A program made the translations under genes and the position numbers. Shown here one piece after another: positions 4,930 to 50,220 of a stretch of DNA of 64,000 nucleotides (positions are counted from its first letter, which is position 1; the number at the start of each line of letters is the position of its first letter). This stretch comes from Ferruginibacter sp. GTDB lineage: Bacteria > Bacteroidota > Bacteroidia > Chitinophagales > Chitinophagaceae. The notes beneath the pieces are model-generated. The model worked only from the letters and a program-made list of their open reading frames with translations, was not told the DNA's origin and ran no database searches. The stretch spans positions 14,699 through 78,698 of the forward strand of contig JANXXM010000036.1 in assembly GCA_025350645.1 (NCBI GenBank), in the 5' to 3' direction.

Positions 4930-5108
4930 TTACATGGTTTAAGGTCGGGCGCAAATGTCCGCAGCAATTCTGTATAAATATTGTTTTAATAAAAAAAAGT
5001 GTCATTAGTTTTTTAGATGGTATACTTGTTGGATGAATGGTTGTGTGTTGATTAAAACAGAAACGCATTTATTTTATACTTACATTTATAGCCCAAAATA
5101 TTTTAATT

Positions 5109-5453
5109 ATGAATATAGTTTACGGCACTTTTATTTTATCTAAAAATAATGACCAGTACAGTGGCGAATTTTTTAATAATAAAATGAAAGCCTTTTCCAG
5201 AGAGGAAATAAACGCTATTGAAACCCCGGATGAAGATCTTTTTGTAGGAAGATTTGATGTATACTGGCAGGAACAAAATGGTAGTGTAAGCGCACTGCTG
5301 GAAATAGATAAAGAGGGAGATGAAATGTATATGCTTACCTGGCAGGATGTGCGGCTTAATGGCGAATCGCAAACCGTAAATTTTACCGGCAGAGGTGTAA
5401 AAAGAAATGGGTTGCTGGTATGTGTATACGAAATGCACACACAAGGGCTTTAA
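5109..5453 (+). CDS. Hypothetical protein (114 aa, acidic, beta-rich)
   Basis: ATG-started ORF filling the gap between convergent/divergent neighbours; no family recognised. Confidence 0.6.
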   Translation: MNIVYGTFILSKNNDQYSGEFFNNKMKAFSREEINAIETPDEDLFVGRFDVYWQEQNGSVSALLEIDKEGDEMYMLTWQDVRLNGESQTVNFTGRGVKRNGLLVCVYEMHTQGL

Positions 5454-5456
5454 ATT

Positions 5457-6065
5457 TTATCCTTCAAATACAGCAAGTCCTTCTCTTGTTACCATCCACT
5501 CGGCTGTAGTACAATCTACAATAGTAGATGGTATCATACCGCCAATGCCACCATCTATTACGAAATCCACCTCATGTTTAAATTTTTCAAAAATTACTTC
5601 GGGGTCGGTATACTCTTCTATCATATCGCCGGGTAAAGATGCACTCAATATGGGGTGGCCCACCGCCTGTGCTAGGGCAAGGCAAATATTATTATCCGGT
5701 ATACGCAGGCCAATGGTACTTTTTTTACTTTGCAATATTTTTGGCACCTGCTTGCTTGCGGGCAGTATAAAAGTAAATGCACCAGGCAAGTGGTTTTTAA
5801 GCATTCTGTATAAAGGTGTATCTATACTTTTGGTATAATCGCTTAGGTCGCTAAGGTCTTTGCAAATAAAAGACAGTTGTGCCTTTGCAGGATCTACGCC
5901 TTTTATCCGGCAAATTTTTTCTATGGCATTTTTTTGTAAAATATCGCAGCCCATACCATAAATAGTATCGGTGGGGTAAATGATAATACCACCATCCAGC
6001 ATACACTCTGCCAGTTGTTTTATAAGCCTCGGCTGCGGGTTATCCGGGTGAATGTGTAGAAGCAT
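5457..6065 (-). CDS. Sua5/YciO/YrdC family (L-threonylcarbamoyladenylate synthase-like)
   Basis: IIYPTDTIYG.GC, LPGAFTFIL, TIGLRIPD, S.SLP, DGG.G...PSTIVD motifs. Confidence 0.9.
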   Translation of the reverse strand: MLLHIHPDNPQPRLIKQLAECMLDGGIIIYPTDTIYGMGCDILQKNAIEKICRIKGVDPAKAQLSFICKDLSDLSDYTKSIDTPLYRMLKNHLPGAFTFILPASKQVPKILQSKKSTIGLRIPDNNICLALAQAVGHPILSASLPGDMIEEYTDPEVIFEKFKHEVDFVIDGGIGGMIPSTIVDCTTAEWMVTREGLAVFEG

Positions 6066-6150
6066 AATATTGAGTATTGGGTATTAAGATATTTGAAGGG
6101 AGATACAAGACACAAAATGTTAGATACAAGATTTATCAATCAATTATTCA

Positions 6151-7908: not shown

Positions 7909-7977
7909 TGTATAAATATAGTTATAGGATTAATTATTTAGTTCGCAAAAGCCTATTACCAATAGCTATCATCGTAT

Positions 7978-8007
7978 TTACTTTTTTTGCTTGATCAAAA
8001 AAAGTAA
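7978..8007. repeat. Perfect 12-bp inverted repeat TTACTTTTTTTG / CAAAAAAAGTAA at the start of a putative intergenic repeat element
   Basis: Arms 7978-7989 and 7996-8007 with a 6-nt loop, read directly. Confidence 0.75.
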
Positions 8008-8276
8008 CAAAAAAATTCAATGCTTCAAAAAAAAGCTAATAATTTAAGTATTTATCTAAAATGAAATCAATTACAACATTTGTGCAAAGCCAGGCATTTG
8101 TAGGACTTACCGTCGAAGAATATTTTCCAAACATTTGTAACAATGATTTTATTACTTAACGACAAACACCAAAAAAAATTTAATGCTTTTTTTCTAAGGT
8201 CGGTCAAAGACTGTATTTTGCAAACTAACAATTAATTCTAGGGTATATATTTCTTACTTTTTTCTACCTATCCTTT

Positions 8277-10184
8277 TTAACCCCTTTCACTCAGCTCCAG
8301 CCACTGCATTTCCTTTTCATCTAGCAGGGCAATAATGGCCGTAACCCTGTCTGATACTTTTTGTAGTTCTTCGTAAGCAAGGCTGGTACTCATTTTTGCT
8401 TCCAGCTCCTGCTTTTCTTTTTGTAAAGAAGGTATTTCTTTTTCTAAATTTTCAAAAGCTGTCTTTTCTTTGAACGATAATTTTTTTATAGCCGTTGCAG
8501 TAGTTTGTACTGTAGGCTTTTCTTCTTTTTTTTCCGGTAATGATATCATGTTCATTTTACCATCATCCGTTTTTGTACCAGCTTCTATTTCCTTTACATA
8601 ATTGCGGTACTGTGTGTAATTGCCTGGATAATCTTTTATTAATCCTTCTCCTTCAAAAGCAAAAAGGTGATCAACCATCCTGTCCATAAAATACCTGTCG
8701 TGGCTCACTATTAAAATACAACCGGGAAAGTCCATTAAAAATTCTTCCAGCGTGCGCAGCGTTTGCAAGTCCAGGTCGTTGGTAGGCTCATCTAATATTA
8801 AAAAATTAGGATTTAAAAAAAGCACACTCATTAAATGAAGCCTTCTTTTTTCGCCACCACTCAGTTTGCTCAGCGGTGTAAACTGCTGCTGTGCATTAAA
8901 ACCAAATTTCTCCATAAACATGCTGGCACTAAGCTTTGTACCATCTGCCAGCGGAAAATACTCTGCCATATCTTTTACATATTCTATAGCCCGTTTATCT
9001 TCTTTGTATTGCAGCCCCTCCTGGTTAAAGTTGCCAAACACTACCGTATCGCCATGATTTATTTTACCACTATCCGGCTCTTCCTGCAGCAACGCTATTT
9101 TTAAAAAAGTAGATTTACCCACGCCGTTTTTTCCTACAATACCAATGCGCTCGCCTCTTTTAAATGTATAATCAAAGCCCTTCATAATTACTTTATCGCC
9201 ATAAGATTTATTTACTTTTTTCATTTCTAAAATCTTACCGCCCAGCCTTGTCATTTTTACCTGCAGGCTCACTTCTGCATCTTCTTTTTTAAGCGATACT
9301 CTTTCTTCTACAGCCGCAAAAGCATCCTGCCTGCTTTTGCTTTTGGTGGTGCGGGCTTTAGGTTGCTTGCGCATCCACTCCAGTTCTTTTCTAAAAATAT
9401 TTTTGTCTTTTTGCAGTTCACTCGCTACGGCTTCCTGCCGCATACTTTTCTGCTCCAGAAAATAATCATAGTCTCCTTTGTACACAAAAAGTTTTTCATC
9501 ATCCATTTCTATGATTTCATTACACACTGCATCTAAAAAATAGCGGTCATGCGTTACAAGCAGTATCGTCATCCGGTGTGTTGAAAGAAAACCTTCCAGC
9601 CATTCTATCATGCCCACATCCAGGTGGTTGGTAGGTTCATCCAGTATAAGCAAGCAACGGCCTTCGTGCAATTGTGCTTCTATAAGAGATTGTGCCAGTG
9701 CTACTCTTTTGCGCTGCCCTCCGCTAAGGGTATTCATTTTTACTTCAATATCGTGCAGGTTTAGTTTGCCCAGTATTTGTTTCAGTTCGCTTTCAAAACT
9801 CCAGGCGCTCAGTTCATCCATGCGCCCCATAATATCTGCCAGCAAGTCCATATCTTCTATGCCTTCATCCAGGTATTGCTCATAAGCGTTTACGGTTTTT
9901 ATTACGGGGTTATCCAGCCGCAGTACATTATCCCTTATGCTTTTATCTTCCATAAAGGGGGTATCCTGCTGCAGCATAATCACTTTTACATCTTTGTGTA
10001 CCCATACGGTGCCTTCATCTGCAGTATCTAAGCCGGCAAATATTTTAAGTAATGTACTTTTTCCACTGCCATTGCGGGCCACAAAGGCTATTTTATCCCC
10101 TTCTTCCACATAAAACGAAATGTTTTTAAAAAGCGTTCTTATTCCGAAAGATTTTGTAATATTTTCTACTGAAGCGTAATGCAT
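8277..10184 (-). CDS. ABC-F family ATP-binding protein (Uup-like)
   Basis: Two ABC domains (ARNGSGKST/LSGGQ/DEPTNHLD; GKNGVGKST/LSGGE/DEPTNDLD), no TM segments, C-terminal coiled coil. Confidence 0.93.
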   Translation of the reverse strand: MHYASVENITKSFGIRTLFKNISFYVEEGDKIAFVARNGSGKSTLLKIFAGLDTADEGTVWVHKDVKVIMLQQDTPFMEDKSIRDNVLRLDNPVIKTVNAYEQYLDEGIEDMDLLADIMGRMDELSAWSFESELKQILGKLNLHDIEVKMNTLSGGQRKRVALAQSLIEAQLHEGRCLLILDEPTNHLDVGMIEWLEGFLSTHRMTILLVTHDRYFLDAVCNEIIEMDDEKLFVYKGDYDYFLEQKSMRQEAVASELQKDKNIFRKELEWMRKQPKARTTKSKSRQDAFAAVEERVSLKKEDAEVSLQVKMTRLGGKILEMKKVNKSYGDKVIMKGFDYTFKRGERIGIVGKNGVGKSTFLKIALLQEEPDSGKINHGDTVVFGNFNQEGLQYKEDKRAIEYVKDMAEYFPLADGTKLSASMFMEKFGFNAQQQFTPLSKLSGGEKRRLHLMSVLFLNPNFLILDEPTNDLDLQTLRTLEEFLMDFPGCILIVSHDRYFMDRMVDHLFAFEGEGLIKDYPGNYTQYRNYVKEIEAGTKTDDGKMNMISLPEKKEEKPTVQTTATAIKKLSFKEKTAFENLEKEIPSLQKEKQELEAKMSTSLAYEELQKVSDRVTAIIALLDEKEMQWLELSERG

Positions 10185-10188
10185 GGGG

Positions 10189-10196
10189 CAAAGATA
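10189..10196 (-). promoter_or_regulatory. -7 element TATCTTTG for the ABC-F gene
   Basis: Exact TAnnTTTG match a few nt upstream of the ATG. Confidence 0.55.
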
Positions 10197-10394
10197 GGGC
10201 GGGGAGAATTGATAGCGGGTTTAGAAGTGCTACTAATACTGTTTGAGAGCCACACAATACCGTAATAGCATAAGTTTTTTCAAGTTTAAAATCTATATCT
10301 TCGCCGCCGAAAATATAAAGGAATATATAATATTTTAATAAGGGGTTATGCAGGTTTTATTGGTACTGGCACAAGTATTGAATAAAAGTGTTTA

Positions 10395-11963
10395 TTGGGA
10401 AAACTTGCGGAAATTAAGTATTTAAATAAAAGAAATAACTTGGCAAATATTAATTTGGAAAGTGGGAGCTCTAAGATGATAATTATTTTACTCTCCCGTA
10501 TTTGGGGAGCAGTTTTGTCTATCTTATTAGTACCAATATATGTAAAATTATTAGGTATAGAAAGCTATGGGCTTGTGGCTTTTTATGCAACACTATCAGG
10601 AGCTCTGGCTATTTTAGATGTAGGTTTAAGTGCATCTATAATAAGACAGGTAGCTATTTATAAAACACAAACTAATAATGAAAAAGAGTTAAAAAATTTA
10701 ATTTTTACTGTAGAAGTAATAAATTGGTTAATAGCTGTTGTACTTGGCATAAGTATAGTTTTATTGGCAAACCCAATAGCTGTAAATTGGGTAAAAGCAA
10801 ACCAAATAGATTCACAAACAATACAACAATCTATAATACTAATGGGTGTGGTTTTTGCTTTTCAATTTCCTGTTAGCGTTTATGATGGAGCACTTGTAGG
10901 ATTACAACAACAAAATGCTAATGCAATTTTAAATTTAATTTTTACAACAGTTAAAGCAGTTGGCGTACTTATTCTATTATATTTTTTAAAACCAACTATT
11001 GAATTGTATTTTATTTGGCAGGTAGTTATAACTATACTTTATACATTCGCTATGAGGGCTTTTGTTTATAAAAAAGTAAATGCCCCTCATATAAAATCAA
11101 TATTTTCAATAACTGAATTAAAAGTAATTTGGCGCTTTGCAGCAGGTATTGCTGCAACTTCAATTGTTATATTTTTTATTACACAAGTAGATAAAATTAT
11201 AGTAAGCAGAAACCTGGAGCAATTAAGTTATTACAGTTTAGCTTTTTTATTGGCTAGTGGTATTACAGCTATCATATCTCCTTTACAAACTATAATATAT
11301 CCAAAACTTACACAGTTTGTTACCACACAAAATGATAAAGCACTAATCGAATTATACCACAAGTCTTGTAAGTGGATTTCTATTATTGTTTTCCCCATAG
11401 GTTTTACGTTAATAATTTTTGCAAAAGACATTTTATTGTTATGGACAAAAAATGAATTATTGACAACTAATACTGCACCAATATTGCAAATAGTTGTGGC
11501 GGGCACAATTTGTAATTGTTTAATGATAGTTCCTTATTATTTAACGCTAGCAAAAGGAAATCCTAAATATGGTTTATATCAAAATATTATTGCTGCAATT
11601 ATTTTAGTTCCCTTATTATTAGTATGGTATAAAAAATATGGAGCTTTGGGAGCAAGTTTTGTATGGTTGGTTGTAAATGCATCCTGTCTGTTAATTTCTT
11701 TACCTATTCTTACAAAATTGTATATCAAAAATCAGTATTTACATTGGTTAAAAAATGATATAATTCAACCTTTAGTTTTTGCGATAATAATTATTTTTTT
11801 AGCAAAATTTATTCAAACAAAATTTATTCATGATTTAAACTTTCTCTTGTTTATATTACTAATAACAATTTCTTATTTAGTTTATGTTTTATCAATACCC
11901 GAAACAAGAGCGTTTTTTTACAAAAATGTAGCATTTGTCAGACAAAATATAAAAAAATATTAA
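10395..11963 (+). CDS. wzx: Wzx-type polysaccharide flippase
   Basis: Multi-TM MATE/PST-like protein with LGIESYGL, LDVGL, QVDKII and YSLA motifs; first gene of the glycan locus. Start uncertain (TTG 10395 or ATG 10476). Confidence 0.85.
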   Translation: MGKLAEIKYLNKRNNLANINLESGSSKMIIILLSRIWGAVLSILLVPIYVKLLGIESYGLVAFYATLSGALAILDVGLSASIIRQVAIYKTQTNNEKELKNLIFTVEVINWLIAVVLGISIVLLANPIAVNWVKANQIDSQTIQQSIILMGVVFAFQFPVSVYDGALVGLQQQNANAILNLIFTTVKAVGVLILLYFLKPTIELYFIWQVVITILYTFAMRAFVYKKVNAPHIKSIFSITELKVIWRFAAGIAATSIVIFFITQVDKIIVSRNLEQLSYYSLAFLLASGITAIISPLQTIIYPKLTQFVTTQNDKALIELYHKSCKWISIIVFPIGFTLIIFAKDILLLWTKNELLTTNTAPILQIVVAGTICNCLMIVPYYLTLAKGNPKYGLYQNIIAAIILVPLLLVWYKKYGALGASFVWLVVNASCLLISLPILTKLYIKNQYLHWLKNDIIQPLVFAIIIIFLAKFIQTKFIHDLNFLLFILLITISYLVYVLSIPETRAFFYKNVAFVRQNIKKY

Positions 11964-12048
11964 ATTATTAAAATTCATTTTGAACAATACTTAGAGAAAA
12001 ATTTTAAGGTATTTTAAAATCTAATTTTTTGTTCAGTAAATTTAAAAA

Positions 12049-12651
12049 ATGCTTAAACTTTTTAAAGGCTTTTGCTATCTTATTTATAAAATTGCGAAAA
12101 AATATGCTCTAGATAAACACATTGAATCTTGTAAAAGAAATGCAGAAATTCATGATGGAACGATATTAAGTCAAACTTCAAGAATTTTAAATAATCGTAA
12201 AAAAGAAAATATTTCAATTGGCGATAAGACAATTTTAAATGGGCAATTAGTTACTTTTAAACATGGTGGTGAAATAACTATAGGTGATTATTGTTTTATT
12301 GGAGAAAATTCTAGAATATGGTCTGCGAAGAAAATAACGATTGGTAATAGAGTTTTAATAGCTCATAATGTAAATATTCATGATCAAATTTCTCATCCAC
12401 TTGATTCAGTAGAAAGACATAAAGATCAAATGCATATTTTAGAAAAGGGGTTTCAAAATCCTCATTTCATACATGAGAAAGAAATTATCATTGAGGATGA
12501 TGTTTGGATAGGTTTTAATGCAACTATTCTTAAAGGTGTTAAAATAGGTAAAGGGGCAATTATTGGCGCTTGTACAATTGTAACAGAAAATGTACCTGAG
12601 TTTGCAGTTGTAGTAGGTAACCCTGCAAAAATCATAAAATATACTACTTAA
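12049..12651 (+). CDS. Sugar O-acetyltransferase (left-handed beta-helix, hexapeptide repeats)
   Basis: [49 protein letters not shown]. Confidence 0.9.
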
Positions 12652-12699
12652 TTTTTTTTGCAAAAAGCCAATTAGCTAAAATAAATCAAATAAAAATAA

Positions 12700-13626
12700 A
12701 TGGAAATAATTACAATTTGCCCTGTATGTAAAGAAAAAGATCTGAAGTTTTTATTTAATGCAAAAGATAGACATTACAACAATAAAGGAGATTATAGCCT
12801 TAACAAATGTATAAATTGTGGTGTTGTTTTTTTGAATCCAATGTATGATGATACAGAGTTAATGCATTTTTACCCTCAATCAGAATATTATGCTTATCAT
12901 ACTGATTTTGAAAACTTAGTTAATGAACCTAACACTTTAAAAAGCAAATTAAAAAAGATATTTAAAACCTCTAAGGAATATAAAGAATTATATAGCAATC
13001 CTGGAAATGTATTAGACATTGGTTGTGGTAATGGCTTTTATATAAATAAACTTAAAAATAAAGGATGGAAAGTTAAGGGTGTAGAACCAAGTAAAGTAGC
13101 CTCAGAAATCGGCAATTCAATTGGACTTAATATCTTTAATGGTAGTTTAATTGATGCTAAATATCAAGATAATGAATTTGATTTGATTTACTCGCACCAC
13201 TCTTTTGAGCACATATATAATCCTAATGAGACATTAGTAGAAATAAATAGAGTTCTTAAAAAAGATGGTAAATTATTTATTGGAATACCAAATTTTGGTG
13301 GAATGAATGCAAAAGTCTGGGGACGTTACTGGTATTATTTGGGTGCTCCAGTTCACACATTTAATTACTCCCCTAAAAATATAACTTTGCTATTAGAAAA
13401 AAATAAATTCAAAGTAGAAAAAATAAACTATGTAGGAAGTGATACAGGAATTGCAGGTTCAATAAGTATTTTTTTAAATAGAAAAAATGGAAAGATGTCT
13501 GATGAAGGAAATAGTTTTTTGAAACATAAATTTTTCTTTTATTTCTTTAGTATAACAGGTCGAATTCAGAATTTTTTTAAAATGGGTGATTGCATGGAAA
13601 TAATAGCCGTAAAGAATATTTCTTAA
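12700..13626 (+). CDS. Class I SAM-dependent methyltransferase with N-terminal Zn-ribbon
   Basis: CPVC...C.NCG, VLDIGCGNG, GVEPS, HSFEHI.NP, P.HT..Y motifs. Confidence 0.88.
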   Translation: MEIITICPVCKEKDLKFLFNAKDRHYNNKGDYSLNKCINCGVVFLNPMYDDTELMHFYPQSEYYAYHTDFENLVNEPNTLKSKLKKIFKTSKEYKELYSNPGNVLDIGCGNGFYINKLKNKGWKVKGVEPSKVASEIGNSIGLNIFNGSLIDAKYQDNEFDLIYSHHSFEHIYNPNETLVEINRVLKKDGKLFIGIPNFGGMNAKVWGRYWYYLGAPVHTFNYSPKNITLLLEKNKFKVEKINYVGSDTGIAGSISIFLNRKNGKMSDEGNSFLKHKFFFYFFSITGRIQNFFKMGDCMEIIAVKNIS

Positions 13627-13715
13627 TTAGTAATTAAAAGTTGAAATGGCATTTCAATTTTTTTCAATTTTAATAAATTACTTAAACCAAATTCAAACGA
13701 ATATCTTTCTACAAA

Positions 13716-14852
13716 ATGAAAATTTTAATCACAGGAGGTGCAGGTTTTATAGGTTCAAACTTAGCATTAGCATTAATCAAAAAAAATCATAGCATAGTTG
13801 TTTTAGATAATTTATCGAAACAAATTCATGGAACTAATGCTTTGGAAACATCGCCGCTGTACAACAGTATTAAAGATAAAGTTACATTTATAAAGGGGGA
13901 TGTTACAGAAAAACAAGATTTGCAAAAAGCTTTAATTGATGTTGATTTAGTTGTTCATTATGCAGCAGAAACGGGTACTGGTCAATCCATGTACGAAATT
14001 GAAAGATACAGCAACGTTAATGTAGGAGGGACAGCCATATTATTAGATTTATTGGCAAACGATAAAACTTTACAAGTAAAAAAGGTTATTGTAGCATCTT
14101 CCCGATCTATCTATGGCGAAGGAAAATATTTCTCTAAAGAACTTGGTGCTGTTTATCCTGAACACAGAGATGATGAATCTATGCGCAATGGCAGATTTGA
14201 GGTATTTTATGATAATGAGGATACAGCTTTGCAATTAATGGCAACAGATGAAGAATCAAAAATTCATCCCTCATCTATTTATGGAATAACGAAACAAAAC
14301 CAAGAACAAATGGTTTTGTGTGTATGCAAAACTATTGGTATAAAAGCAATTGCATTTCGTTATCAAAATGTTTATGGGCCAGGGCAATCATTAACTAACC
14401 CGTACACAGGTATTTTGTCTATTTTCTCATCGCTAATTTTAAATAATAAGCCTATTAATATTTTTGAAGATGGAAAAGAAAGTAGAGATTTTGTTTTTAT
14501 AGATGATGTTGTAAAAGCAACAATTTTAGGCATAGAAAATGATTCAATAAATAATGATGTTTTTAATGTGGGCTCAGGAGTGGCTACAGACGTACTTACT
14601 GTTGCAAAAACATTGGTGATGCAATACAATAAAAATGTACCTATAACCATAACGGGTAATTATCGCTTAGGAGATATAAGACATAATTATGCAGACCTTG
14701 TTAAAATAAATAAAGCTTTAAACTTCATACCTCTAATACCTTTTGAAGAAGGTATTACAAAATTTGCGAAATGGGTTGTCACCCAAAATATAGAAGAAAG
14801 CAAATATGATGAGAGCATTGAAGAAATGAAAAAGAAGGGATTATTTAAATAA
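13716..14852 (+). CDS. NAD-dependent epimerase/dehydratase, WbiB-like (dTDP-L-rhamnose 4-epimerase type)
   Basis: GGAGFIG, AAETGTGQSMYEI, YGITK (YxxxK), FEDG.ESRDFV, GDIRHN; the TGQSMYEI signature is recalled from the WbiB-like subfamily. Confidence 0.75.
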   Translation: MKILITGGAGFIGSNLALALIKKNHSIVVLDNLSKQIHGTNALETSPLYNSIKDKVTFIKGDVTEKQDLQKALIDVDLVVHYAAETGTGQSMYEIERYSNVNVGGTAILLDLLANDKTLQVKKVIVASSRSIYGEGKYFSKELGAVYPEHRDDESMRNGRFEVFYDNEDTALQLMATDEESKIHPSSIYGITKQNQEQMVLCVCKTIGIKAIAFRYQNVYGPGQSLTNPYTGILSIFSSLILNNKPINIFEDGKESRDFVFIDDVVKATILGIENDSINNDVFNVGSGVATDVLTVAKTLVMQYNKNVPITITGNYRLGDIRHNYADLVKINKALNFIPLIPFEEGITKFAKWVVTQNIEESKYDESIEEMKKKGLFK

Positions 14853-14857
14853 AATTT

Positions 14858-15874
14858 ATGCAACAAAAAAAAGTGCTAATTGTCGGATTAATTTTTCATG
14901 GTTACAATGAAAGTATTGAACAAGCATTTAAAAATTTGAATTACAAAACAAAAGTAATAGGGTTTACTGATGGCGCAGTTGAAAATTTAAAAGAAAAATT
15001 TCAGTTTTATTTATCCAAAACAAATAAATTTTATGAATATAAAAATAAACAGTTTAATACATTATTAGAAAAAACTTATACTGAATTTGAACCTGACATA
15101 CTTTTTATAATTAAAGGTCATCAAATAGACCCTGCTGTAATAAGCAAAATGAAAAGCAGTTTTAATATACTATGGATGATGGATTCGATTCACACTAATC
15201 CTGGCTCCATAAACATACTACCCTATATTAATAAAGTTTTTTTGTTTGAACCTACAGATATACCCTTGCTCAAAGAAAAATACACCGTTGATGGGGTATT
15301 CATGCCCTTAGCCTTAGATGAAAAAGTTTATTTTCCTATCGCTAATAAAAAGGTTATTGATATATTATTTGTTGGAGGTTTAGTGCCTGATAGAATTAGA
15401 TTACTAAATAAAATCATTAAAAATTTTCCTGATAAAAAAATATTAATATTCGGAAAGTACTATTCAAAATTTCGAAGTCCGATTCATCATTTATTCAGAA
15501 AAAATAAAAAAAATTATACCAATAAAGTTGTTTTACCATCGAAACTAAATGAATTATACAGCATATCTAAACTTTGTATTAATATACACCAAAAACAATC
15601 TGTAATAGGTGTTAATCAAAGATTTTTTGAAATATTAGGTTCCAGAAATTTACAAATTTGTGATCATAAAAACTTTATTAGTCAAAATTTTTTAAAAGAT
15701 GACTTACTCTGGTATAATAATGAACAAGAACTTTTTGATATTATTACTATGGCATTAGAAAAGTATGATGAACTAGAAAATATAATAAATAATGGTTATG
15801 AAAAAGTATTATCAAAACATACTTTTACCCATAGGATAAATGAAATTTTAGAATTAAGCCAGCTCCCACAATAA
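14858..15874 (+). CDS. CgeB-family glycosyltransferase
   Basis: W.MDS, FMPLALD..VY, ILFVG, CINIH...NQRFFEI.G, HTF.HR C-terminal motif. Confidence 0.8.
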   Translation: MQQKKVLIVGLIFHGYNESIEQAFKNLNYKTKVIGFTDGAVENLKEKFQFYLSKTNKFYEYKNKQFNTLLEKTYTEFEPDILFIIKGHQIDPAVISKMKSSFNILWMMDSIHTNPGSINILPYINKVFLFEPTDIPLLKEKYTVDGVFMPLALDEKVYFPIANKKVIDILFVGGLVPDRIRLLNKIIKNFPDKKILIFGKYYSKFRSPIHHLFRKNKKNYTNKVVLPSKLNELYSISKLCINIHQKQSVIGVNQRFFEILGSRNLQICDHKNFISQNFLKDDLLWYNNEQELFDIITMALEKYDELENIINNGYEKVLSKHTFTHRINEILELSQLPQ

Positions 15875-16002
15875 AATCAAAATTTTCAATTTTAATAAAA
15901 AAGCTTATTAATTTTTAGCTGACAAAAAAAATAACTATGACTATTAAAAAATTACAATACATAATTTTTAAAAAAGATTAATTCCAGAAATCAATATTTT
16001 TT

Positions 16003-44638: not shown

Positions 44639-45328
44639 ATGAACGAGAAATTAAAAGATGCATTGATAAGAAACCGGCCAACGTTTCATAAAGTAGTAAC
44701 ATTTGATGACAAAAGAGATTCATTACTGCCCTTTAATTTTACAGAAAGTAATGTAGAAATTACAGCTGCACTCGTTGCTGATACCAATCATTTTTCTGCA
44801 TGGGTAAATAAAAAATTAATTGATGCAGGGGCTACTTATGGTATAGGTGGCTACAACGAAAACCGCACTTTATACAAACGCAGTACATTATTTTCCGGCA
44901 TAGAAGAAAGAAGCCTGCATTTAGGTACAGATATATGGGCGCCTGCAGCAACAGCAGTATTTGCGCCACTTGGCGGTATGGTGCATAGCTTTGCCTACAA
45001 TAATAATTTTGGAGATTATGGTGCAACAATCATTTTGCAGCACCAGTTAGATACTGTTGCTTTTTATACTTTGTACGGGCATCTTTCTCTTGCAGATTTG
45101 GTAGATATGCGCAAAGGAAAATTTCTTACAAGAGGAGAAGTTATTGGACATTTAGGCAAGCCAGAAGAAAATGGTAACTGGCCGCCGCACCTGCATTTTC
45201 AGATAATAGAAGATATTAGTTTTAATGAGGGCAATTACCCGGGCGTATGCAGCCTGCAGGATGCAGAAAAATATCTGTATAATTCGCCAGACCCAGATTT
45301 TATATTAAAGATGAATTCTTTTATTTAA
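44639..45328 (+). CDS. M23 family metallopeptidase
   Basis: LHLGTDIW (HxGxD), DYG.TIILQH, YTLYGHL, PPHLHFQ (HxH). Confidence 0.88.
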   Translation: MNEKLKDALIRNRPTFHKVVTFDDKRDSLLPFNFTESNVEITAALVADTNHFSAWVNKKLIDAGATYGIGGYNENRTLYKRSTLFSGIEERSLHLGTDIWAPAATAVFAPLGGMVHSFAYNNNFGDYGATIILQHQLDTVAFYTLYGHLSLADLVDMRKGKFLTRGEVIGHLGKPEENGNWPPHLHFQIIEDISFNEGNYPGVCSLQDAEKYLYNSPDPDFILKMNSFI

Positions 45329-45606
45329 TGCATTGCGCCCATTCTAAAATTTGAAGTGCAGGTGGCAAAACCAATAAGCATTAATAAACCGCCACTTATA
45401 AAAAAGCCCTGCGCATATCTTTTATCTTTTGCAAACAATAAAATAAGGCCAACAAATAACTGCAGCAGGCCGCCAAAAAAACCTACACTTCCTATAAATA
45501 CAAAAAAATCTTCGCTGCTATGCCCACCATTTGCAACAGCGAGTAATGCGCCAAATAAAAAAACAACAGCAAAACTGTATAATATTATTTTGGGTATTAA
45601 TTTCAT
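45325..45606 (-). CDS. Small 3-TM membrane protein with a single C-terminal Cys (paralog B)
   Basis: 93 aa; ...GLILLFAKDKRYAQGFFISGGLLMLIGFATCTSNFRMGAMH; clear paralog of 45645-45920. Confidence 0.8.
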   Translation of the reverse strand: MKLIPKIILYSFAVVFLFGALLAVANGGHSSEDFFVFIGSVGFFGGLLQLFVGLILLFAKDKRYAQGFFISGGLLMLIGFATCTSNFRMGAMH

Positions 45607-45644
45607 TGTATAAATTTATTATTTACTTTTTATTTTTTAAGATA

Positions 45645-45920
45645 TTATATTTTAGTTGCGCTGCATACGGCAAAACCCAGCATTATCATTGTGCCTGCGC
45701 TTAATAAAAAACCCTGGGCATAACGTTTATCTTCTTTAAATAATAAAAATAATCCGATTATTAAATCTACTACTCCGCCAAAAATATTTACTAAGCCAAA
45801 TGCAATTGAAAGATTTTGATACGAAAATGATGAAGATCCGCTTATCGTAGATGAAACCATTAAACTAAAAAAAAGTGCAATTCCAATATTTATCAGTAAA
45901 ATTTTTACAGGTAGTTTCAT
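45645..45920 (-). CDS. Small 3-TM membrane protein with a single C-terminal Cys (paralog A)
   Basis: 91 aa; ...GLFLLFKEDKRYAQGFLLSAGTMIMLGFAVCSATKI. Confidence 0.8.
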   Translation of the reverse strand: MKLPVKILLINIGIALFFSLMVSSTISGSSSFSYQNLSIAFGLVNIFGGVVDLIIGLFLLFKEDKRYAQGFLLSAGTMIMLGFAVCSATKI

Positions 45921-46012
45921 GTGCTCATTTTATTATATTTTTCTTAGTCTGCAATTTGCCGAATTATTCCTTTTATTTTGTTTTAATGTAGCTCATTTGT
46001 AAGTACAAAAAT

Positions 46013-47419
46013 TTAAACTGGCACATGGCTTCTTTCTGCCTGCAGTACTTTTAAGTATTCTTCTTTATCATCCCTGTAAAATAAATTCATGGTTTCAAAA
46101 GGAATAATGCGCCCGTCCTTATGCACGATATGCACACAGCTTTTTTTAATAGACCTTACATCAAAATCGTACGCATCTATAAACCGCATAATAATAATGC
46201 GAAAAAGATTATCGTAACCCAGACCTGGCGCTTCAATTTGTGGTAAACAGCAAAGGAGTTGTTTCATATTTTCCTCTACCCTGTCTACCGAAATTCCTGT
46301 ACTAAAAATATCAATCATCTGTTCCTTTAACGCATCGTCCTGCTCGTACACAATGGTATTTTTGCTATTGTCTAAAAGCTGTACAGGATCTACATATCTC
46401 GTAAGCGGAAAAACTTTACCATTTACTTTTAATGCGTAACCCATTGCCAGCGCATCTGGGTTGCAGGGCACAGGAATAATATCATTTGGTTCAAAAATAT
46501 TGGTTTGCTCTAATATTTTTCTGCGTACATCGGTAAGCGTAATACGGTCCGTTGCGGGGTTAAAATTATCTGTACGTCCTGCTACCTGCGTGGGTTGAAA
46601 AGTAACCCCTCTTACACATTTTTGCTGTAAAGCAAATTCAATTATTTTTCCTATCTCCTCATCGTTTACTCCCTGCTGCAAGGTTACTACTAAAGTTGTG
46701 GCCAGGTTTAACGCATTCAAATGTTCCAGTGCTTTCATTCTTGTTGCCGTAAGATCTTTGCCCCGCAAGGCTTCTAGCGCATCGGGTTTAAATGAATCGA
46801 ACTGTAAATAAATTTCAAAATCGGGGGCATAAGTGGCAAGTTGCTTTGTAAATTCGAAGTCTTTAGCAATTCGTATTCCGTTTGTATTAAGCATTAAATG
46901 CTTTATCGGTTTTTTCTTTGCTATATCCATTATGGCAAAAAAATCCGGATGCACTGTTGGTTCGCCGCCGCTTATTTGCACCACATCTGGCGTGCCTTCA
47001 TTTGCCACAATAATATCCAGCATTTTTTCTACTTCTTCAACCGTTCTGTGCCTGCCGTAATGCGGGCTGCTCATGGCATAGCAGGTAGGGCATTGAAGAT
47101 TGCAGCGGTCTGTAATTTCTATAACAGTAAGGCAACTGTGCTGCTCATGATCTGCACATAAACCACAATCGTACGGGCAGCCATAATGTGTTTTTGTATT
47201 AAAATGCAATGGCGTTTCTGATGGCTTATTGTAATTGCGAATATTTTTATAATACTCAATATCTGTTGCTATTAACACTTTTTCAAACCCATGCTGCACG
47301 CAATTCTTAAGCATGTACACGTTGGCATTTTCAAAAACAATTTTAGCATCTACCCTGCGAAGGCAGGTGCTGCAAATACTAAGTGTGAAGTCGTAATAAG
47401 TGTATGGGCGTTCGGGCAT
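46013..47419 (-). CDS. Radical SAM enzyme of the Tes/GDGT-MAS (MJ0619, COG1964)-like family
   Basis: N-terminal CSTC...CVQH metal site, GCPYDCGLC..H...C auxiliary motif, CNLQCPTC radical SAM motif, SGGEPT, NTNG, YLQFD, C-terminal SCVH...GRIIPF. Confidence 0.85.
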   Translation of the reverse strand: MPERPYTYYDFTLSICSTCLRRVDAKIVFENANVYMLKNCVQHGFEKVLIATDIEYYKNIRNYNKPSETPLHFNTKTHYGCPYDCGLCADHEQHSCLTVIEITDRCNLQCPTCYAMSSPHYGRHRTVEEVEKMLDIIVANEGTPDVVQISGGEPTVHPDFFAIMDIAKKKPIKHLMLNTNGIRIAKDFEFTKQLATYAPDFEIYLQFDSFKPDALEALRGKDLTATRMKALEHLNALNLATTLVVTLQQGVNDEEIGKIIEFALQQKCVRGVTFQPTQVAGRTDNFNPATDRITLTDVRRKILEQTNIFEPNDIIPVPCNPDALAMGYALKVNGKVFPLTRYVDPVQLLDNSKNTIVYEQDDALKEQMIDIFSTGISVDRVEENMKQLLCCLPQIEAPGLGYDNLFRIIIMRFIDAYDFDVRSIKKSCVHIVHKDGRIIPFETMNLFYRDDKEEYLKVLQAERSHVPV

Positions 47420-47449
47420 GGTATTCGTTTTTATATTTGGATTTAGTTC

Positions 47450-47649
47450 TTATTCAAAATCTAATTTTGATAAACCAGACTGTCTACCTATCGAATTAAA
47501 AGTTGCTGTAGGCATTTCTTTCTCCCAGCAGGAATTATAACAGTCTATACCGGATTGCCCATTTTTCTTTATTAAACATGACTTCCATCTTGAGCCACAA
47601 AATATTTATCTTCTTTCTAAACGATATGTTGAGGTGTACTATTTTGCAT
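47450..47649 (-). pseudogene. Collapsed hicB-hicA toxin-antitoxin remnant
   Basis: MQNSTPQHIV*KEDKYFVAQ (HicB-like start, TAG where Trp is expected) fused in frame to DGSHV**...TVIIPAGR/KEMPTATFNSIGRQSGLSKLDFE* (HicA-like GSH motif and C-terminus, one frameshift). Confidence 0.65.
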
Positions 47650-47653
47650 AAAA

Positions 47654-48406
47654 TTATTTTCTCAAATATAATTTTTTTTTGCTAAAGTAAAGTGCTGCAT
47701 AATATCCAACCCCTGCTAAACAAGTAACCTGAATAGTAGATAATCCAACCTGCCAGGTATAATGCGGTTTTATAAAATCAATCAAAAAACGAAAACTGAT
47801 ATAAGCCATCATAAATATTTTGAATCGCATACCAGGTGGCAATATCCTGTGCTTTTCCACCTGCACAATACTTATCCAAAGCAATATCAAAAAAAGAATT
47901 TCGTACAGCGTTACGGGGTGCCGCAGGGTACCATCTCCCAAATTCATTCCTGTAAAAAACCCAGTAACAATACCGTAAGTTTCTTCATACACACCCATGC
48001 TAAAACAGCCTACTCTTCCTATTATTAACCCAAGTATCATAGGGTAAGTAAATAAATCGCCGCTGCTATTTTTTTCTTTAATAATTTTTTTGATCAGTTC
48101 TACGCCACACAATCCACCTAAAAAACCGCCAAGCACCGTTTTATTTTGATAGAAATACAATAATTTATTTGGTGCGGAAACCATCTCCGGAAAATTTTCT
48201 AATCCACCGATAAGCCTGCTTCCTATTATGGCACCAAATATGGCACCGATAATAATCCATGTTCTGTTTTCAGACTCAATAAGATCTTGTTGTTTTTTTC
48301 TTAAGAAAATAAAATAACGGAAAGCCACAAAAAAAGCAAGAAACTCAAAAATGCTATGCAGTGTAAAGTAATATTGGCCTGCAGATATAGTAATAGGAAA
48401 TGGCAT
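47654..48406 (-). CDS. Divergent prolipoprotein diacylglyceryl transferase (Lgt) family protein
   Basis: 7-TM; KTVLGGFLGG, IGRVGCF...YG, RHPVTLYE, YISFRFLIDFIK; ATG at 48406 (MPFPITI) preferred. Confidence 0.85.
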   Translation of the reverse strand: MPFPITISAGQYYFTLHSIFEFLAFFVAFRYFIFLRKKQQDLIESENRTWIIIGAIFGAIIGSRLIGGLENFPEMVSAPNKLLYFYQNKTVLGGFLGGLCGVELIKKIIKEKNSSGDLFTYPMILGLIIGRVGCFSMGVYEETYGIVTGFFTGMNLGDGTLRHPVTLYEILFLILLWISIVQVEKHRILPPGMRFKIFMMAYISFRFLIDFIKPHYTWQVGLSTIQVTCLAGVGYYAALYFSKKKLYLRK

Positions 48407-48413
48407 ACTTATC

Positions 48414-48421
48414 CAAATATA
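48414..48421 (-). promoter_or_regulatory. -7 element TATATTTG heading the lgt-like/radical SAM unit
   Basis: Exact TAnnTTTG match 7 nt upstream of ATG 48406. Confidence 0.55.
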
Positions 48422-48601
48422 ATTGTTATAAAAGGATGGCAAAGAATTTGCAGATAATTTTGCTTCTAACCAATATCCCTGAAATACCAAAACAGCACAC
48501 AAAAAATATTATTCTACGATCCATAATTGATATAACCACATTATGGTATTGCTACCTATTTAATCTATACCTACTTTTAACTTTCTTAAAAACTACCGCA
48601 C

Positions 48602-49138
48602 ATGCATCAATTACTTAAATGCCTTGCAGCCACAATTATTGTTTGTTTTACCACAACTGCTTTTGCACAAAAAAAAACCGATACCGAATTTAGAAAGGGA
48701 TATATTTTACTGCTTAAAATAAATAACGCCGTTGTTACAAATTTTCACTCAGCACCAGATTTGTATGCCGGTGGGCTTGCACTTAACCCGCAGTTTGTAG
48801 TAGCAGAGCATGTACTACGGCTCGGTGCCAATGCAGGTTTCGTGTATACCAATAAAAAATTATCGGGCATATTTGGGCCTATGCTGGCACTTAAAATAAA
48901 AAACTTTGATCTTAAAAACCTGGCAGGGCTTGCAAATCTTCAACTCATTGCAGAGGCAAACTGGGGCACAGATAAACAACAAATGGCGGGTGGCGGGCTG
49001 GCACTGGAAGTGTTACAAAAAGCACAGCTCAGTTTTACAGTGCAGCGAGATTATAATTTAAACAGTTGGTGGCTGCAAACGCATATCGGTATAAAACTAA
49101 ATAAGAAGAAAAAAACAACCCCAATTTTTAATCAGTAA
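48602..49138 (+). CDS. Hypothetical exported protein (alternating beta-strand pattern, possible small outer-membrane barrel)
   Basis: Signal peptide ending AFA-Q; amphipathic strands. Confidence 0.7.
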   Translation: MHQLLKCLAATIIVCFTTTAFAQKKTDTEFRKGYILLLKINNAVVTNFHSAPDLYAGGLALNPQFVVAEHVLRLGANAGFVYTNKKLSGIFGPMLALKIKNFDLKNLAGLANLQLIAEANWGTDKQQMAGGGLALEVLQKAQLSFTVQRDYNLNSWWLQTHIGIKLNKKKKTTPIFNQ

Positions 49139-49182: not shown

Positions 49183-50220
49183 ATGAAAAAAGCATTGGTA
49201 ATAAGCGGCGGTGGCTCTAAAGGTGCATTTGCAGTAGGTGTAATAAAACAACTGGTGCAAAACTTTCCTATTGATTTTGATATGGTGGTGGGTACCAGCA
49301 CAGGCTCGTTAATAGCTCCACTGGCAGCACTCGGCAAAATTGATGATCTGCAAAAATTATATACTACCATTACCAACGATGATATAATTATTAAAGACAA
49401 CATTGGTAACCGGCTGGATGAAAATTCAATATTTGACGCCTCTCCTTTATTTGAAAAAATTTCGCAGATTTATACTGATGCTTTTTTTGATGAACTAAAT
49501 ACATCGGGCAAAGAAATTTATTTGAATACCGTGTGTTTGCAAACAGAAGAACTGGTGGTATTTACCAATGCGGTAAATCCTGTGCAATCAAAATTTTACA
49601 CTACTACAAAACTTACAAATGGCGATCATTTTAGAAAAGCTATACTCGCCTCTGCCTGCCAGCCTATTTTTATGAACCCGGTAAAAGTAAACCTGCATGT
49701 AGCTGGCGAAGCAAGACCAAATGATCAGTTTGTAGATGGTGGTGTAAGGGAGTATGCTGGCGTACAAGTAGCCATAGATGCAGATGCAAAGGAAATTTTT
49801 ACGATATTACTCTCTGCTAAAAATGGGGAGGTAAATAATACAGATTATACTACCATGTTCCCTATACTGGAGCAGACCATTGCCATTTTTACGACAGATG
49901 TTGGTAAGAACGATCTTATCATCCCTTTTCAATACAATGATGCATTAAAATATATAGATGCCGTAAAAAAGAAAATGAAAAGAGAAGGTCTTGCTATGGA
50001 TGATATCAACAGATATTTTACCATACAAGGCAAGGAAAGTCCGTTTGAAGATAAAGTACCTTTAAAAATTCATATTATACAGCCGGAAACAGCATTGGGC
50101 GGCGGTACTGGCGGGTTGGAATTTATACCTGCAGATATGAAAAAAATGCTGGCAAAAGGTGTGGCTGCTGCGGGGGATTTTGTGGCGTCATTAAAACCCG
50201 GGGAGGTAGACTGGGCCTAG
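49183..50220 (+). CDS. Patatin-like phospholipase
   Basis: GGGSKG oxyanion loop, GTSTG nucleophile, DGG catalytic Asp. Confidence 0.92.
   Translation: MKKALVISGGGSKGAFAVGVIKQLVQNFPIDFDMVVGTSTGSLIAPLAALGKIDDLQKLYTTITNDDIIIKDNIGNRLDENSIFDASPLFEKISQIYTDAFFDELNTSGKEIYLNTVCLQTEELVVFTNAVNPVQSKFYTTTKLTNGDHFRKAILASACQPIFMNPVKVNLHVAGEARPNDQFVDGGVREYAGVQVAIDADAKEIFTILLSAKNGEVNNTDYTTMFPILEQTIAIFTTDVGKNDLIIPFQYNDALKYIDAVKKKMKREGLAMDDINRYFTIQGKESPFEDKVPLKIHIIQPETALGGGTGGLEFIPADMKKMLAKGVAAAGDFVASLKPGEVDWA

Follow-up and report, generated by a model that had tools for sequence, protein, structure and literature searches.

Gene content of the locus

The window analysed is a stretch of 64,000 nucleotides of a Ferruginibacter sp. 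contig (JANXXM010000036.1). It contains an open reading frame for a radical SAM protein of 468 aa, which forms the middle of a gene trio with an Lgt paralogue upstream and two genes for small membrane proteins downstream (Table 1). The translated enzyme matches Pfam Radical_SAM (96.5 bits, E 2.6e-27) and, over residues 8–51, Pfam Zn_ribbon_HMPTM (PF23545, E 7.8e-17), and HMMER aligns it with GDGT-MAS (7TOL) at E 1.5e-65 and 29% identity. The Pfam and 7TOL matches are far beyond chance.

The same arrangement recurs in other genomes. In 18 of 19 Bacteroidota loci the Lgt paralogue immediately precedes the radical SAM gene, and the two genes share a strand in 77 of 80 loci from many phyla; where they are unlinked, the Lgt paralogue is present elsewhere in the same genome. 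In two proteins, Lgt and the radical SAM enzyme are fused. The number of small proteins per locus varies from one to four, and equivalents of small protein 2 occur across phyla in at least 63 of the 80 loci. Among genes of at least 90 aa, conservation across the loci is limited to the radical SAM and Lgt-like genes, and no further conserved neighbours beyond the trio were found in the compared loci. The adjoining genes for an M23 peptidase and a patatin are lineage-specific. The cassette of a neighbouring clade (L104) carries an extra ICMT-family methyltransferase; no ICMT was found in the query genome. The trio is widespread, and no published description of it was found in the CC-licensed PMC and bioRxiv literature.

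The Lgt-like and radical SAM genes are separated by a 234-nt spacer that resembles a HicA remnant. A conserved peptide gene within it was considered and rejected, both for this reason and because the two genes adjoin directly or overlap elsewhere. A defence system was dropped as well: in PADLOC the enzyme showed only generic viperin-core similarity, and the remaining genes of the cassette had no match. A scan of positions 45100–48800 for sigma-70 promoters and terminators, which did not include Bacteroidota promoters, gave no more sites than shuffled sequences.

Table 1. Features of the trio, with positions in the window
Feature	Position	Strand	Basis and remarks
Tes/GDGT-MAS-fold radical SAM enzyme	46013..47419	-	468 aa; profile, structure-model and tree evidence
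Rubredoxin-like CX2C...CX2H site, CSTC...CVQH (C16, C19, C40, H43)	47291..47374	-	translation; Zn_ribbon_HMPTM
N-terminal auxiliary [4Fe-4S] motif, C81-X3-C85-X2-C88-X2-H91, with H94 and C96	47132..47179	-	translation; GDGT-MAS comparison
Radical SAM cluster motif, C106-X3-C110-X2-C113 (CNLQCPTC)	47081..47104	-	translation; Radical_SAM; alignment
C319 in VPCNP, invariant	46463..46465	-	alignment; Ser at the GDGT-MAS position
C390-C391-L392-P393, invariant	46241..46252	-	within low-confidence segment 352–398; no GDGT-MAS counterpart
C-terminal block, S427-C428-V-H430 ... I439-P-F-E442-T-M-N445	46085..46138	-	alignment; of the Tes Cys set, C428 alone remains
IPFETMN, residues 439–445	46085..46105	-	
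Lgt paralogue	47654..48406	-	250 aa; Pfam LGT; fold; conserved ATG start at 48406
Small membrane protein 1	45645..45920	-	91 aa, three predicted TM; ORF call
C86, single Cys of protein 1	45663..45665	-	after KEDKRYAQG and a 16-residue uncharged stretch; tail SATKI
Small membrane protein 2	45325..45606	-	93 aa; ORF call
C83, single Cys of protein 2	45358..45360	-	after KDKRYAQG and an uncharged stretch; tail TSNFRMGAMH

N-terminal metal sites and overall fold

GDGT-MAS has a rubredoxin-like site (C9X2C12X20C33X2H36), an N-terminal auxiliary site formed by C73, C77, C80 and a histidine, and the CX3CX2C motif (PMC9433317). The query has a counterpart of each, so that the three features of Tes/GDGT-MAS membership in this part of the protein are all present. 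The residues C16, C19, C40 and H43 of the rubredoxin-like site are kept in 98–99% of 81 orthologues. The auxiliary motif lies in the segment CPYDCGLCADHEQHSC, in which C81, C85, C88 and H91 align with C73, C77, C80 and the histidine of MJ0619 and are kept in 99–100% of the orthologues; H94 and C96 in the same segment are family-specific and invariant. C106, C110 and C113 of the radical SAM motif are likewise invariant across the 81 orthologues. The sequence-only reading had placed these three sites in the same order as in GDGT-MAS, and both identity and order agree with the published description (PMC9433317); every motif that it quoted is present in the translation.

The AF2 model of the enzyme (pLDDT 83, pTM 0.87) is of low confidence in residues 352–398, the segment with the CC motif (pLDDT <50). 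The only full-length matches in Foldseek are 7TOM and 7TOL (TM 0.80/0.75), the former at E 1.3e-37 over 502 columns. The next matches, SkfB and MoaA, are confined to the radical SAM core with TM scores of about 0.4. A comparison of the model with the GDGT-MAS structure had been proposed earlier, with clustering with MoaA as the result that would speak against the relationship. The folds agree over their full length, and because SkfB and MoaA match in the core only while 7TOM and 7TOL match throughout, grouping with MoaA is not seen.

Relationship to Tes and TrsS

Despite the agreement in fold, the enzyme is set apart from Tes by profile models and phylogeny. The Tes model NF045702 gives 281 bits against a cut-off of 450 and aligns only over model positions 2–312 of 486; the search at genome level gave 249 bits and the same positions. 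The archaeal controls M. jannaschii, S. acidocaldarius and M. acetivorans pass this model. Of 401 Bacteroidota genomes, 31 have a match, and a single genome (G169) has one that is full-length and above the cut-off. In an unrooted maximum-likelihood tree of 94 sequences, obtained by a quick search and weak in its deep forks, the query falls in a clade of 25 rows (SH-aLRT 100) apart from MJ0619 and the Tes of G169. On this profile and tree evidence the enzyme is a bacterial cousin of Tes and not a Tes orthologue, because its score is below the cut-off, its match to the Tes model is confined to the first two-thirds, and its clade is separate. The bacterial clade of the enzyme spans at least eight phyla at 56–92% identity, and includes orthologues in Acidobacteriota.

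The best-scoring curated model is instead TrsS (NF045646), with 328 bits against a cut-off of 490 that none of 17 relatives scanned reached. Here residues 12–453 align with model positions 3–438 of 441, and because this alignment runs end to end, the C-terminal domain resembles TrsS more than Tes. Unlike TrsS, the query contains no selenocysteine. No account of the function of TrsS or of the site of its Sec was found in the CC-licensed PMC and bioRxiv literature, and the comparison therefore does not bear on function.

The C-terminal cysteine set

The differences from GDGT-MAS are concentrated in cysteines of the C-terminal domain. In MJ0619, we infer that C438, C455/C456 and C470 serve as ligands of the C-terminal cluster, since they are the only four cysteines in the examined parts of this domain. 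In the query, as throughout the 81 orthologues, C438, C455, C470 and Y459 correspond to I410, S427, E442 and I431, and the cluster cysteine set and Tyr459 that count as a membership feature of Tes are thus absent as a set. What is still present is C428 (equivalent to C456) and M411 (equivalent to M439), and the latter, which aligns with the labile Met439 of MJ0619, is kept in 83% of the orthologues. The sequence-only reading had given IPFC for archaeal members, where the query has no Cys. This is borne out by the HMMER alignment, in which the 20-residue stretch of 7TOL bearing IPFC aligns with KSCVHIVHKDGRIIPFETMN of the query, and IPFC faces IPFE.

Four other cysteines, C319, C390, C391 and C428, are invariant in the 81 orthologues, which represent at least eight phyla. 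Since three C-terminal cysteines and the tyrosine have been exchanged family-wide while these four are invariant, the earlier suggestion of a different auxiliary cluster or substrate is well founded. In comparison with GDGT-MAS/Tes (MJ0619, 7TOL/7TOM), the query thus shares the four-domain architecture and the DAY(D/N)FD and IPF motifs, whereas its clade has gained invariant C319, C390, C391, H94 and C96.

The Lgt paralogue and the small membrane proteins

The mechanical ORF of the Lgt paralogue runs to a TTG at 48502, upstream of the conserved start. The protein matches Pfam LGT (PF01790) with 67.4 bits, cut-off 24.9, over model positions 2–236 of 240, and scores 43.2 bits with the TIGR00544 equivalog, below the cut-off of 118.9. 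A housekeeping Lgt is encoded elsewhere in the genome (contig C87, 117 bits). In its AF2 model (pLDDT 92) the paralogue is a seven-helix membrane transferase without the periplasmic head insert seen in E. coli Lgt, and E. coli Lgt (5AZB) is its only significant PDB match (E 1.5e-7, TM 0.58). In 71 family members, R143, G154, Y235, R239 and H196 are invariant, and E243 is Glu or Asp. We take R143 and R239, together with Y235, G154 and E243, to be essential residues of E. coli Lgt. At the position of E. coli Lgt H103 the 71 members have Val, Met, Leu or Ile, and at that of N146 they have Cys; the housekeeping Lgt of the query organism also lacks the His and also has this Cys. Retention of the catalytic arginines R143 and R239 argues that the paralogue is an active transferase.

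Small membrane proteins 1 and 2 are paralogues with 39–40% identity. Protein 1 has no match in Pfam, NCBIfam or PADLOC, and on a RefSeq plasmid one small-protein gene is annotated as a CDS by PGAP. At their C-terminal ends, the proteins have a basic patch followed by about 16 uncharged residues, a single Cys and a final tail of 3–14 aa. In a set of 80 small proteins, the 12 residues ahead of the uncharged stretch hold on average 3.35 Lys and Arg, the median uncharged stretch is 16 residues and the median tail 7, and 36 of the proteins have a single Cys overall. The sequences diverge rapidly, being 29–33% identical where the enzyme is about 90% identical, and dN/dS values of 0.26–0.56 with saturated dS lend weak support to purifying selection on the small genes. 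The C-terminus looks like a lipobox-like signal, and the positive-inside rule predicts that the Cys is located in the outer leaflet.

Comparison with other lipid-modifying systems

The presumed acceptor resembles a type II signal peptide in its basic patch, hydrophobic stretch of ~16 residues and Cys. In contrast to substrates with an N-terminal lipobox, the mini-protein is polytopic and carries the Cys at its C-terminal end, with only 3–14 residues beyond it. The paralogue shares with E. coli Lgt of the Lgt-LspA-Lnt pathway the fold as well as R143, R239, Y235, G154 and E243 (E/D), but it is a second, divergent copy without the head insert and with H103 replaced, and the trio has a radical SAM partner and no dedicated signal peptidase. 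CaaX processing is similar in that the presumed lipid would be carried by a Cys near the C-terminus, and in that a related cassette clade has an ICMT-family enzyme; the trio differs by the absence of a prenyltransferase and a CaaX protease, and the donor lipid and membrane side probably differ as well.

With respect to the radical SAM enzyme, Mss of Thermotoga and Thermoanaerobacter is similar in being proposed to couple inert acyl-tail carbons, a comparison based on the published description. According to its discoverers, Mss is remotely related to Tes and restricted to anaerobes (PMC13159169). The only true Bacteroidota Tes found, that of G169, differs from the query in having neither an Lgt paralogue nor Cys-tailed mini-proteins adjoining it; that genome has no close Lgt paralogue, the match found there being weak (25% identity, E 2.1e-7).

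Possible function

We consider the chances about even that the trio constitutes a dedicated module for protein lipidation and lipid tailoring. Because the enzyme forms a trio with an Lgt paralogue and Cys-tailed membrane proteins, its substrate is likely a protein-bound lipid and not bulk branched-chain lipids. In such a module, the last helix of the small protein would mimic a lipoprotein signal peptide, with a basic patch on the cytoplasmic side, ~16 uncharged residues and a Cys close to the outer leaflet. The Lgt paralogue would then transfer, probably, a diacylglyceryl or related lipid from a phospholipid onto the Cys thiol. The radical SAM enzyme, which in some organisms is fused to the Lgt paralogue, may dock at the C-terminus of the paralogue on the cytoplasmic side. 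It would cleave SAM and abstract a hydrogen from an inert acyl-tail carbon, either in the protein anchor or in the donor lipid before transfer. In Tes, the mechanism involves a lipid C–S intermediate on the [Fe4S4]C cluster (PMC9433317; PMC13459092). A C–S or C–C bond could be made in the query at a site with C319, C390, C391 and C428 that would replace this cluster. This would yield a small membrane protein whose lipid anchor has been tailored and may be cross-linked, macrocyclic or membrane-spanning. More tentatively, and with the balance against it, the trio may perform a new post-translational modification, in which a private Lgt S-lipidates the C-terminal Cys and the Tes-derived enzyme subsequently cross-links the acyl end. 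The partner in the cross-link would be a second chain, a lipid of the opposite leaflet or sulfur, giving a macrocyclic or membrane-spanning anchor.

Some observations are difficult to reconcile with the lipidation module. Direct access to the Cys is topologically awkward because the enzyme is cytoplasmic and the Cys is placed in the outer leaflet, although access to the end of the tail is plausible. The replacement of E. coli Lgt H103 by a hydrophobic residue in the paralogue also speaks against the module. ICMT enzymes work on the cytoplasmic side of the membrane, which is hard to square with a Cys in the outer leaflet in the five-gene variant, and no ICMT was found in the query genome. The CC motif, a part of the proposed cysteine site, also lies in a segment that is modelled at low confidence.

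Alternative explanations

The enzyme might instead be a RiPP-like peptide maturase that acts directly on the Cys or tail of the small proteins, forming for example a thioether or other cross-link, with the Lgt paralogue as a membrane scaffold or a later lipidating step. The small proteins are precursor-like in their fast-evolving body and conserved Cys end, the enzyme core is similar to SkfB, SuiB and anSME, and the invariant CC and C428/H430 could handle a thiol. A SPASM or twitch domain is nevertheless lacking, as there is no Pfam SPASM match and the maturase models cover only residues about 92–290, and by Foldseek the C-terminal domain is of the lipid-enzyme type. The predicted outer-leaflet position of the Cys, away from the cytoplasmic enzyme, and the catalytic arginines retained in the Lgt paralogue also count against a maturase, which we regard as rather unlikely. 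Still less probable is a genuine synthase of membrane-spanning lipids that joins the iso-branched tails of two bulk lipids, as in iso-diabolic acid or brGDGT precursors, with the Lgt paralogue and small proteins as accessories. The enzyme shares its fold and three of four metal sites with GDGT-MAS, orthologues occur in Acidobacteriota, and iso-branched tails end like phytanyl chains, such a role having been proposed for bacterial homologues (Zeng et al., PMC8941075). Against this, the Tes model fails over the whole C-terminal domain and the clade is separate, three of four cysteines are gone from the domain with [Fe4S4]C, the carrier of the lipid intermediate, and a tyrosine invariant among archaeal homologues has been exchanged. 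The coupling to the Lgt paralogue in 77 of 80 loci, and to Cys-tailed proteins, is also unexpected for a bulk-lipid enzyme. To our knowledge, membrane-spanning lipids have not been reported from the well-studied aerobic hosts Chryseobacterium, Pedobacter and Paenibacillus. Furthermore, Tes homologues do not track the producers of iso-diabolic acid, being present in none of the DA/iso-DA producers outside Acidobacteria and in 3 of 14 acidobacteria (PMC13159169).

Many orthologues carry the JGI name 7,8-dihydro-6-hydroxymethylpterin dimethyltransferase, a function that we consider next to impossible for the enzyme. It is suggested only by this inherited name and by the title of PF23545, “HMPTM zinc ribbon”. 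We know of no methanopterin pathway in these bacteria, and the gene surroundings relate to membrane and lipid. The name traces back to the first assignment of MJ0619, which the authors of the GDGT-MAS structure were unable to corroborate, showing instead that the protein is a lipid enzyme (PMC9433317).

Implications

Hundreds of bacterial “Tes homologues” are being taken as markers of possible producers of brGDGTs or membrane-spanning lipids (PMC8941075; bioRxiv 10.1101/2024.06.25.600576). Because most cysteines of the C-terminal domain are missing and a protein-lipidation gene is linked, members of the query clade, including those in Acidobacteriota and Planctomycetota, should be counted as Tes only after testing. 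Tes can be recognized by a full-length match to the Tes model together with “CC..IPFC”, and the query clade by “SC..IPF[ED]” and CCLP together with a neighbouring Lgt gene.

The hosts of the trio include the culturable aerobes Chryseobacterium, Pedobacter, Sphingobacterium and Paenibacillus, and one copy is found on a plasmid. Since the trio is compact and available in these organisms and on a plasmid, the proposal is directly testable. If the trio does act as a lipidation and tailoring module, it would represent a second, substrate-dedicated branch of lipoprotein biogenesis with a C-terminal lipobox and radical chemistry on the anchor, and would be an example of re-use of the Tes scaffold.

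Fold and metal sites of the radical SAM enzyme

Pfam assigns a full radical SAM domain (E 2.6e-27) and an 'HMPTM N-terminal zinc ribbon' (E 7.8e-17) to the enzyme, and its closest solved structure is the tetraether synthase Tes of M. jannaschii, GDGT-MAS (MJ0619; PDB codes 7TOL/7TOM, E 1.5e-65). The sequence-only reading had proposed metal sites in the Tes order, and translation of the ORF confirms all the motifs that it quoted. The published GDGT-MAS motifs, C9X2C12X20C33X2H36, C73/C77/C80 plus a His, and CX3CX2C (PMC9433317), correspond one-to-one with the N-terminal half of the query, which bears out that order. The archaeal sequence 'RCCIHY...IIPFCTYN' aligns over 'KSCVHI...IIPFETMN' in the query, and the IPFC that the sequence-only reading gave for archaeal members was thus correct. 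An AlphaFold2 model based on 45 orthologues reached pLDDT 83 and pTM 0.87, low confidence being confined to residues 352–398, and Foldseek against the PDB matched 7TOM/7TOL along the entire model (TM 0.80/0.75, E 1e-37). The other matches (SkfB, MoaA, SuiB and viperins) span the radical SAM core only, at TM about 0.4, and the earlier proviso that the protein might cluster with MoaA or unrelated families therefore fails.

Coordinates of the features discussed (residue numbers refer to the radical SAM enzyme; motif coordinates verified by translation)
Feature	Position	Strand	Remarks
Radical SAM enzyme	46013–47419	-	Uninterrupted ORF, 468 aa
N-terminal pair	C16-X2-C19 ... C40-X2-H43
Second Cys motif	C81-X3-C85-X2-C88-X2-H91, then H94 and C96
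Third Cys motif	C106-X3-C110-X2-C113
C-terminal motif	I439-P-F-E-T-M-N445
Lgt paralogue	47654–48406	-	250 aa; directly upstream of enzyme gene, same strand; Pfam LGT, 67 bits
Small membrane protein	45645–45920	-	91 aa; directly downstream of enzyme gene
Small membrane protein	45325–45606	-	93 aa; directly downstream; paralogue of 91-aa protein
Spacer, Lgt paralogue to enzyme	47420–47653	-	234 nt
Patatin-like phospholipase	49183–50220	+	About 680 nt from Lgt paralogue
Low-G+C stretch	10001–16000		G+C 0.27–0.29, about 0.36 elsewhere in window

Relation to Tes

Score, genome sample, tree and C-terminal residues each place the enzyme outside Tes. It reaches 281 bits against the NCBIfam Tes equivalog model (NF045702, cut-off 450), aligning with positions 2–312 of 486 only; three archaeal controls exceed the cut-off. 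The top-scoring model is that of the radical SAM (seleno)protein family TrsS (NF045646), at 328 bits against a cut-off of 490; nothing on TrsS beyond a table entry was found in the openly licensed PMC/bioRxiv literature. The Tes model was matched in 31 of 401 sampled Bacteroidota genomes, and in 30 of these, including that of the window, the match covers the first two-thirds of the model only (143–282 bits). The remaining genome (G169) holds a bona fide Tes (loci L107/L110, G169:C91:56878-58299) that matches at full length with 494 bits and reads 'KCCVYY...IPFCTYN', a candidate for a real tetraether or macrocycle synthase of Bacteroidota. In a 94-sequence tree (quick search, unrooted, weak deep forks), the query and its orthologues fall in a 25-row clade (SH-aLRT 100), and MJ0619 and the G169 protein belong to a different branch. 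No Lgt paralogue lies near the G169 gene, and the match to the paralogue in that genome is weak (25% identity, E 2.1e-7), therefore no closely related copy is present. P0242 (688 aa), a Tes-side relative found among representative proteins, is fused C-terminally to DUF5714 (183 bits), which is another partner of this radical SAM superfamily.

Next to the labile Met439, four cysteines are visible in the C-terminal domain of GDGT-MAS (C438, C455, C456 and C470), the cluster ligands being deduced from the cysteines present in MJ0619 and not taken from the structure. Only C456 has a counterpart in the query, C428; C438, C455 and C470 are replaced by I410, S427 and E442. Tyr459, reported to be fully conserved across 1000 archaeal homologues (PMC9433317), corresponds to I431. 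Instead, none of C319, C390 and C391 (invariant CCLP motif) and C428/H430 varies among 81 orthologues, and the site is therefore re-wired, not simply lost. In Tes, the cluster in this domain traps the lipid radical as a C–S intermediate (PMC9433317; PMC13459092).

Conservation of the three-gene unit

By tblastn, the Lgt paralogue is directly upstream of the enzyme gene in 18 of 19 other Bacteroidota genomes. For the two loci without an adjacent copy, it is located elsewhere in the genome. A wider survey of 80 loci in named genomes, with enzymes 56–92% identical to the query, took in Bacteroidota, Bacillota (e.g., Paenibacillus and Heyndrickxia), Acidobacteriota, Planctomycetota, Pseudomonadota, Cyanobacteria, Gemmatimonadota and Myxococcota. 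A same-strand Lgt paralogue is present at 77 of them, almost always abutting the enzyme gene. The enzyme and Lgt-paralogue genes are the only conserved neighbourhood genes of at least 90 aa, and in two natural proteins, of 733 and 671 aa, Lgt is fused to the radical SAM enzyme. One to four small-protein genes accompany the pair at 63 or more of the 80 loci, with more on manual inspection (simple detection rules, a few false positives removed by eye).

In at least one complete genome the trio is carried by a plasmid, a RefSeq replicon of Chondrinema litorale (L109, NZ_CP111057.1, 52134–59519), where PGAP lists a 'prolipoprotein diacylglyceryl transferase family protein', a 'radical SAM protein' and a hypothetical protein of 64 aa with the C-terminus ...GAGVCGSFF. 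Persicobacter psychrovividus also has it on a replicon of 1.07 Mb. These locations and the patchy occurrence of the trio (e.g., one of four genomes of the genus to which the window belongs) are consistent with horizontal transfer. The spacer in the window is unusual, since the two genes abut or overlap in other genomes; by eye it resembles the decayed remnant of a HicA-like toxin gene, with QDGSHV before two stops, then TVIIPAGRK, and EMPTATFNSIGRQSGLSKLDFE with a further stop one frame over. The patatin-like phospholipase, on the opposite strand, matches anti-phage/CBASS phospholipase models weakly, far under the cut-offs, and is not conserved beside the cassette in other genomes. The low-G+C stretch may be a foreign-DNA island.

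The Lgt paralogue and the small proteins

A housekeeping Lgt is encoded elsewhere in the same genome. When the paralogue family (71 members) is aligned with this protein and E. coli Lgt, R143, G154, Y235, R239 and H196 are kept, E243 is Glu or Asp, and R246 is replaced by Lys. The H103 position is hydrophobic and the N146 position is Cys, but since the housekeeping Lgt itself has Tyr and Cys there, neither change marks the paralogue as inactive. The paralogue is without the long periplasmic insert, and E. coli Lgt (5AZB) is the one significant structural neighbour of its model (pLDDT 92). We read it as a putative active transferase with a private acceptor.

Both small proteins in the window contain just one Cys, located six residues from the end in the 91-aa protein and eleven in the 93-aa protein; a single Cys is found in 36 of 80 small proteins. 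Their sequences diverge fast, with 29–33% identity where the enzyme is ~90% identical, but the end is constant: 12 residues with a mean of 3.35 K+R, an uncharged stretch (median 16 residues, n = 80), the Cys, whose context is [GS]-x-[GSA]-[AIVT]-C for Bacteroidota members and LNA[AS]C[FY]G for those of other phyla, and an uncharged tail of 3–14 residues. The tail is His-terminated in 20 of 80, often as N-x-H (..MNMH, ..VNFH, ..GAMH), a second conserved feature after the Cys (tails at L023–L102 and in the 93-aa protein). These ends are organized like a type II signal peptide, with n-region, h-region and lipobox, but stand at the C-terminus of a mini-protein of two or three helices. The active site of E. 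coli Lgt works towards the outer leaflet, and by the positive-inside rule the small-protein Cys would be oriented towards the same leaflet.

Lgt paralogues and Cys-tailed proteins also accompany radical SAM enzymes of more distant clades. The order in genome G144 is Lgt paralogue, a 140-aa protein ending ...SGGMCIFLPQPL, and radical SAM enzyme. A five-gene variant in G031 (L104, G031:C25:35000-46400, genes at 4981–8451) comprises a radical SAM enzyme of the 'KECVH..IPFS' type, an ICMT-family methyltransferase (PF04140, 49 bits), a membrane protein of the DUF4395 family that has CxxxxxxC and CC motifs, an Lgt paralogue and a protein of 76 aa whose sequence ends ...IVGGCLLII. The methyltransferase recalls CaaX-protein processing of a lipidated C-terminal Cys, and it may be speculated that the DUF4395 CC motif supplies in trans what CCLP gives the query clade in cis. 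A related cassette in G178 combines a radical SAM enzyme, DUF4395 and an Lgt paralogue with a Cys-tailed protein of 123 aa; no ICMT gene was detected there. The window's genome has one ordinary LspA, and no ICMT homologue was found in it.

Proposed function

No paper linking an Lgt-type transferase to a radical SAM enzyme was found in the openly licensed PMC/bioRxiv literature. The inherited pterin-methylase annotation is extremely improbable. The GDGT-MAS fold would suit a true bulk-lipid coupling enzyme, and published work regards bacterial Tes homologues as candidates for brGDGT synthases, a role that it does not test by experiment (PMC8941075; bioRxiv 10.1101/2024.06.25.600576). Such homologues do not track iso-diabolic acid producers (PMC13159169), and with the query placed outside Tes we consider this role quite unlikely. 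A peptide maturase working on the small-protein Cys or tail itself, to which the constant ends could point, is somewhat less improbable, though still doubtful.

That the three genes act together is very likely, and an even chance is given to a dedicated lipidation and lipid-tailoring module. In such a module, the Lgt paralogue would attach a diacylglyceryl-type lipid to the single Cys of the small protein. The radical SAM enzyme, at the cytoplasmic face and docked on the Lgt-paralogue C-terminus, would abstract a hydrogen from an inert acyl-tail carbon of the Cys-bound anchor or the donor lipid, and a C–S or C–C bond would then be made at the site of C319, C390, C391 and C428.
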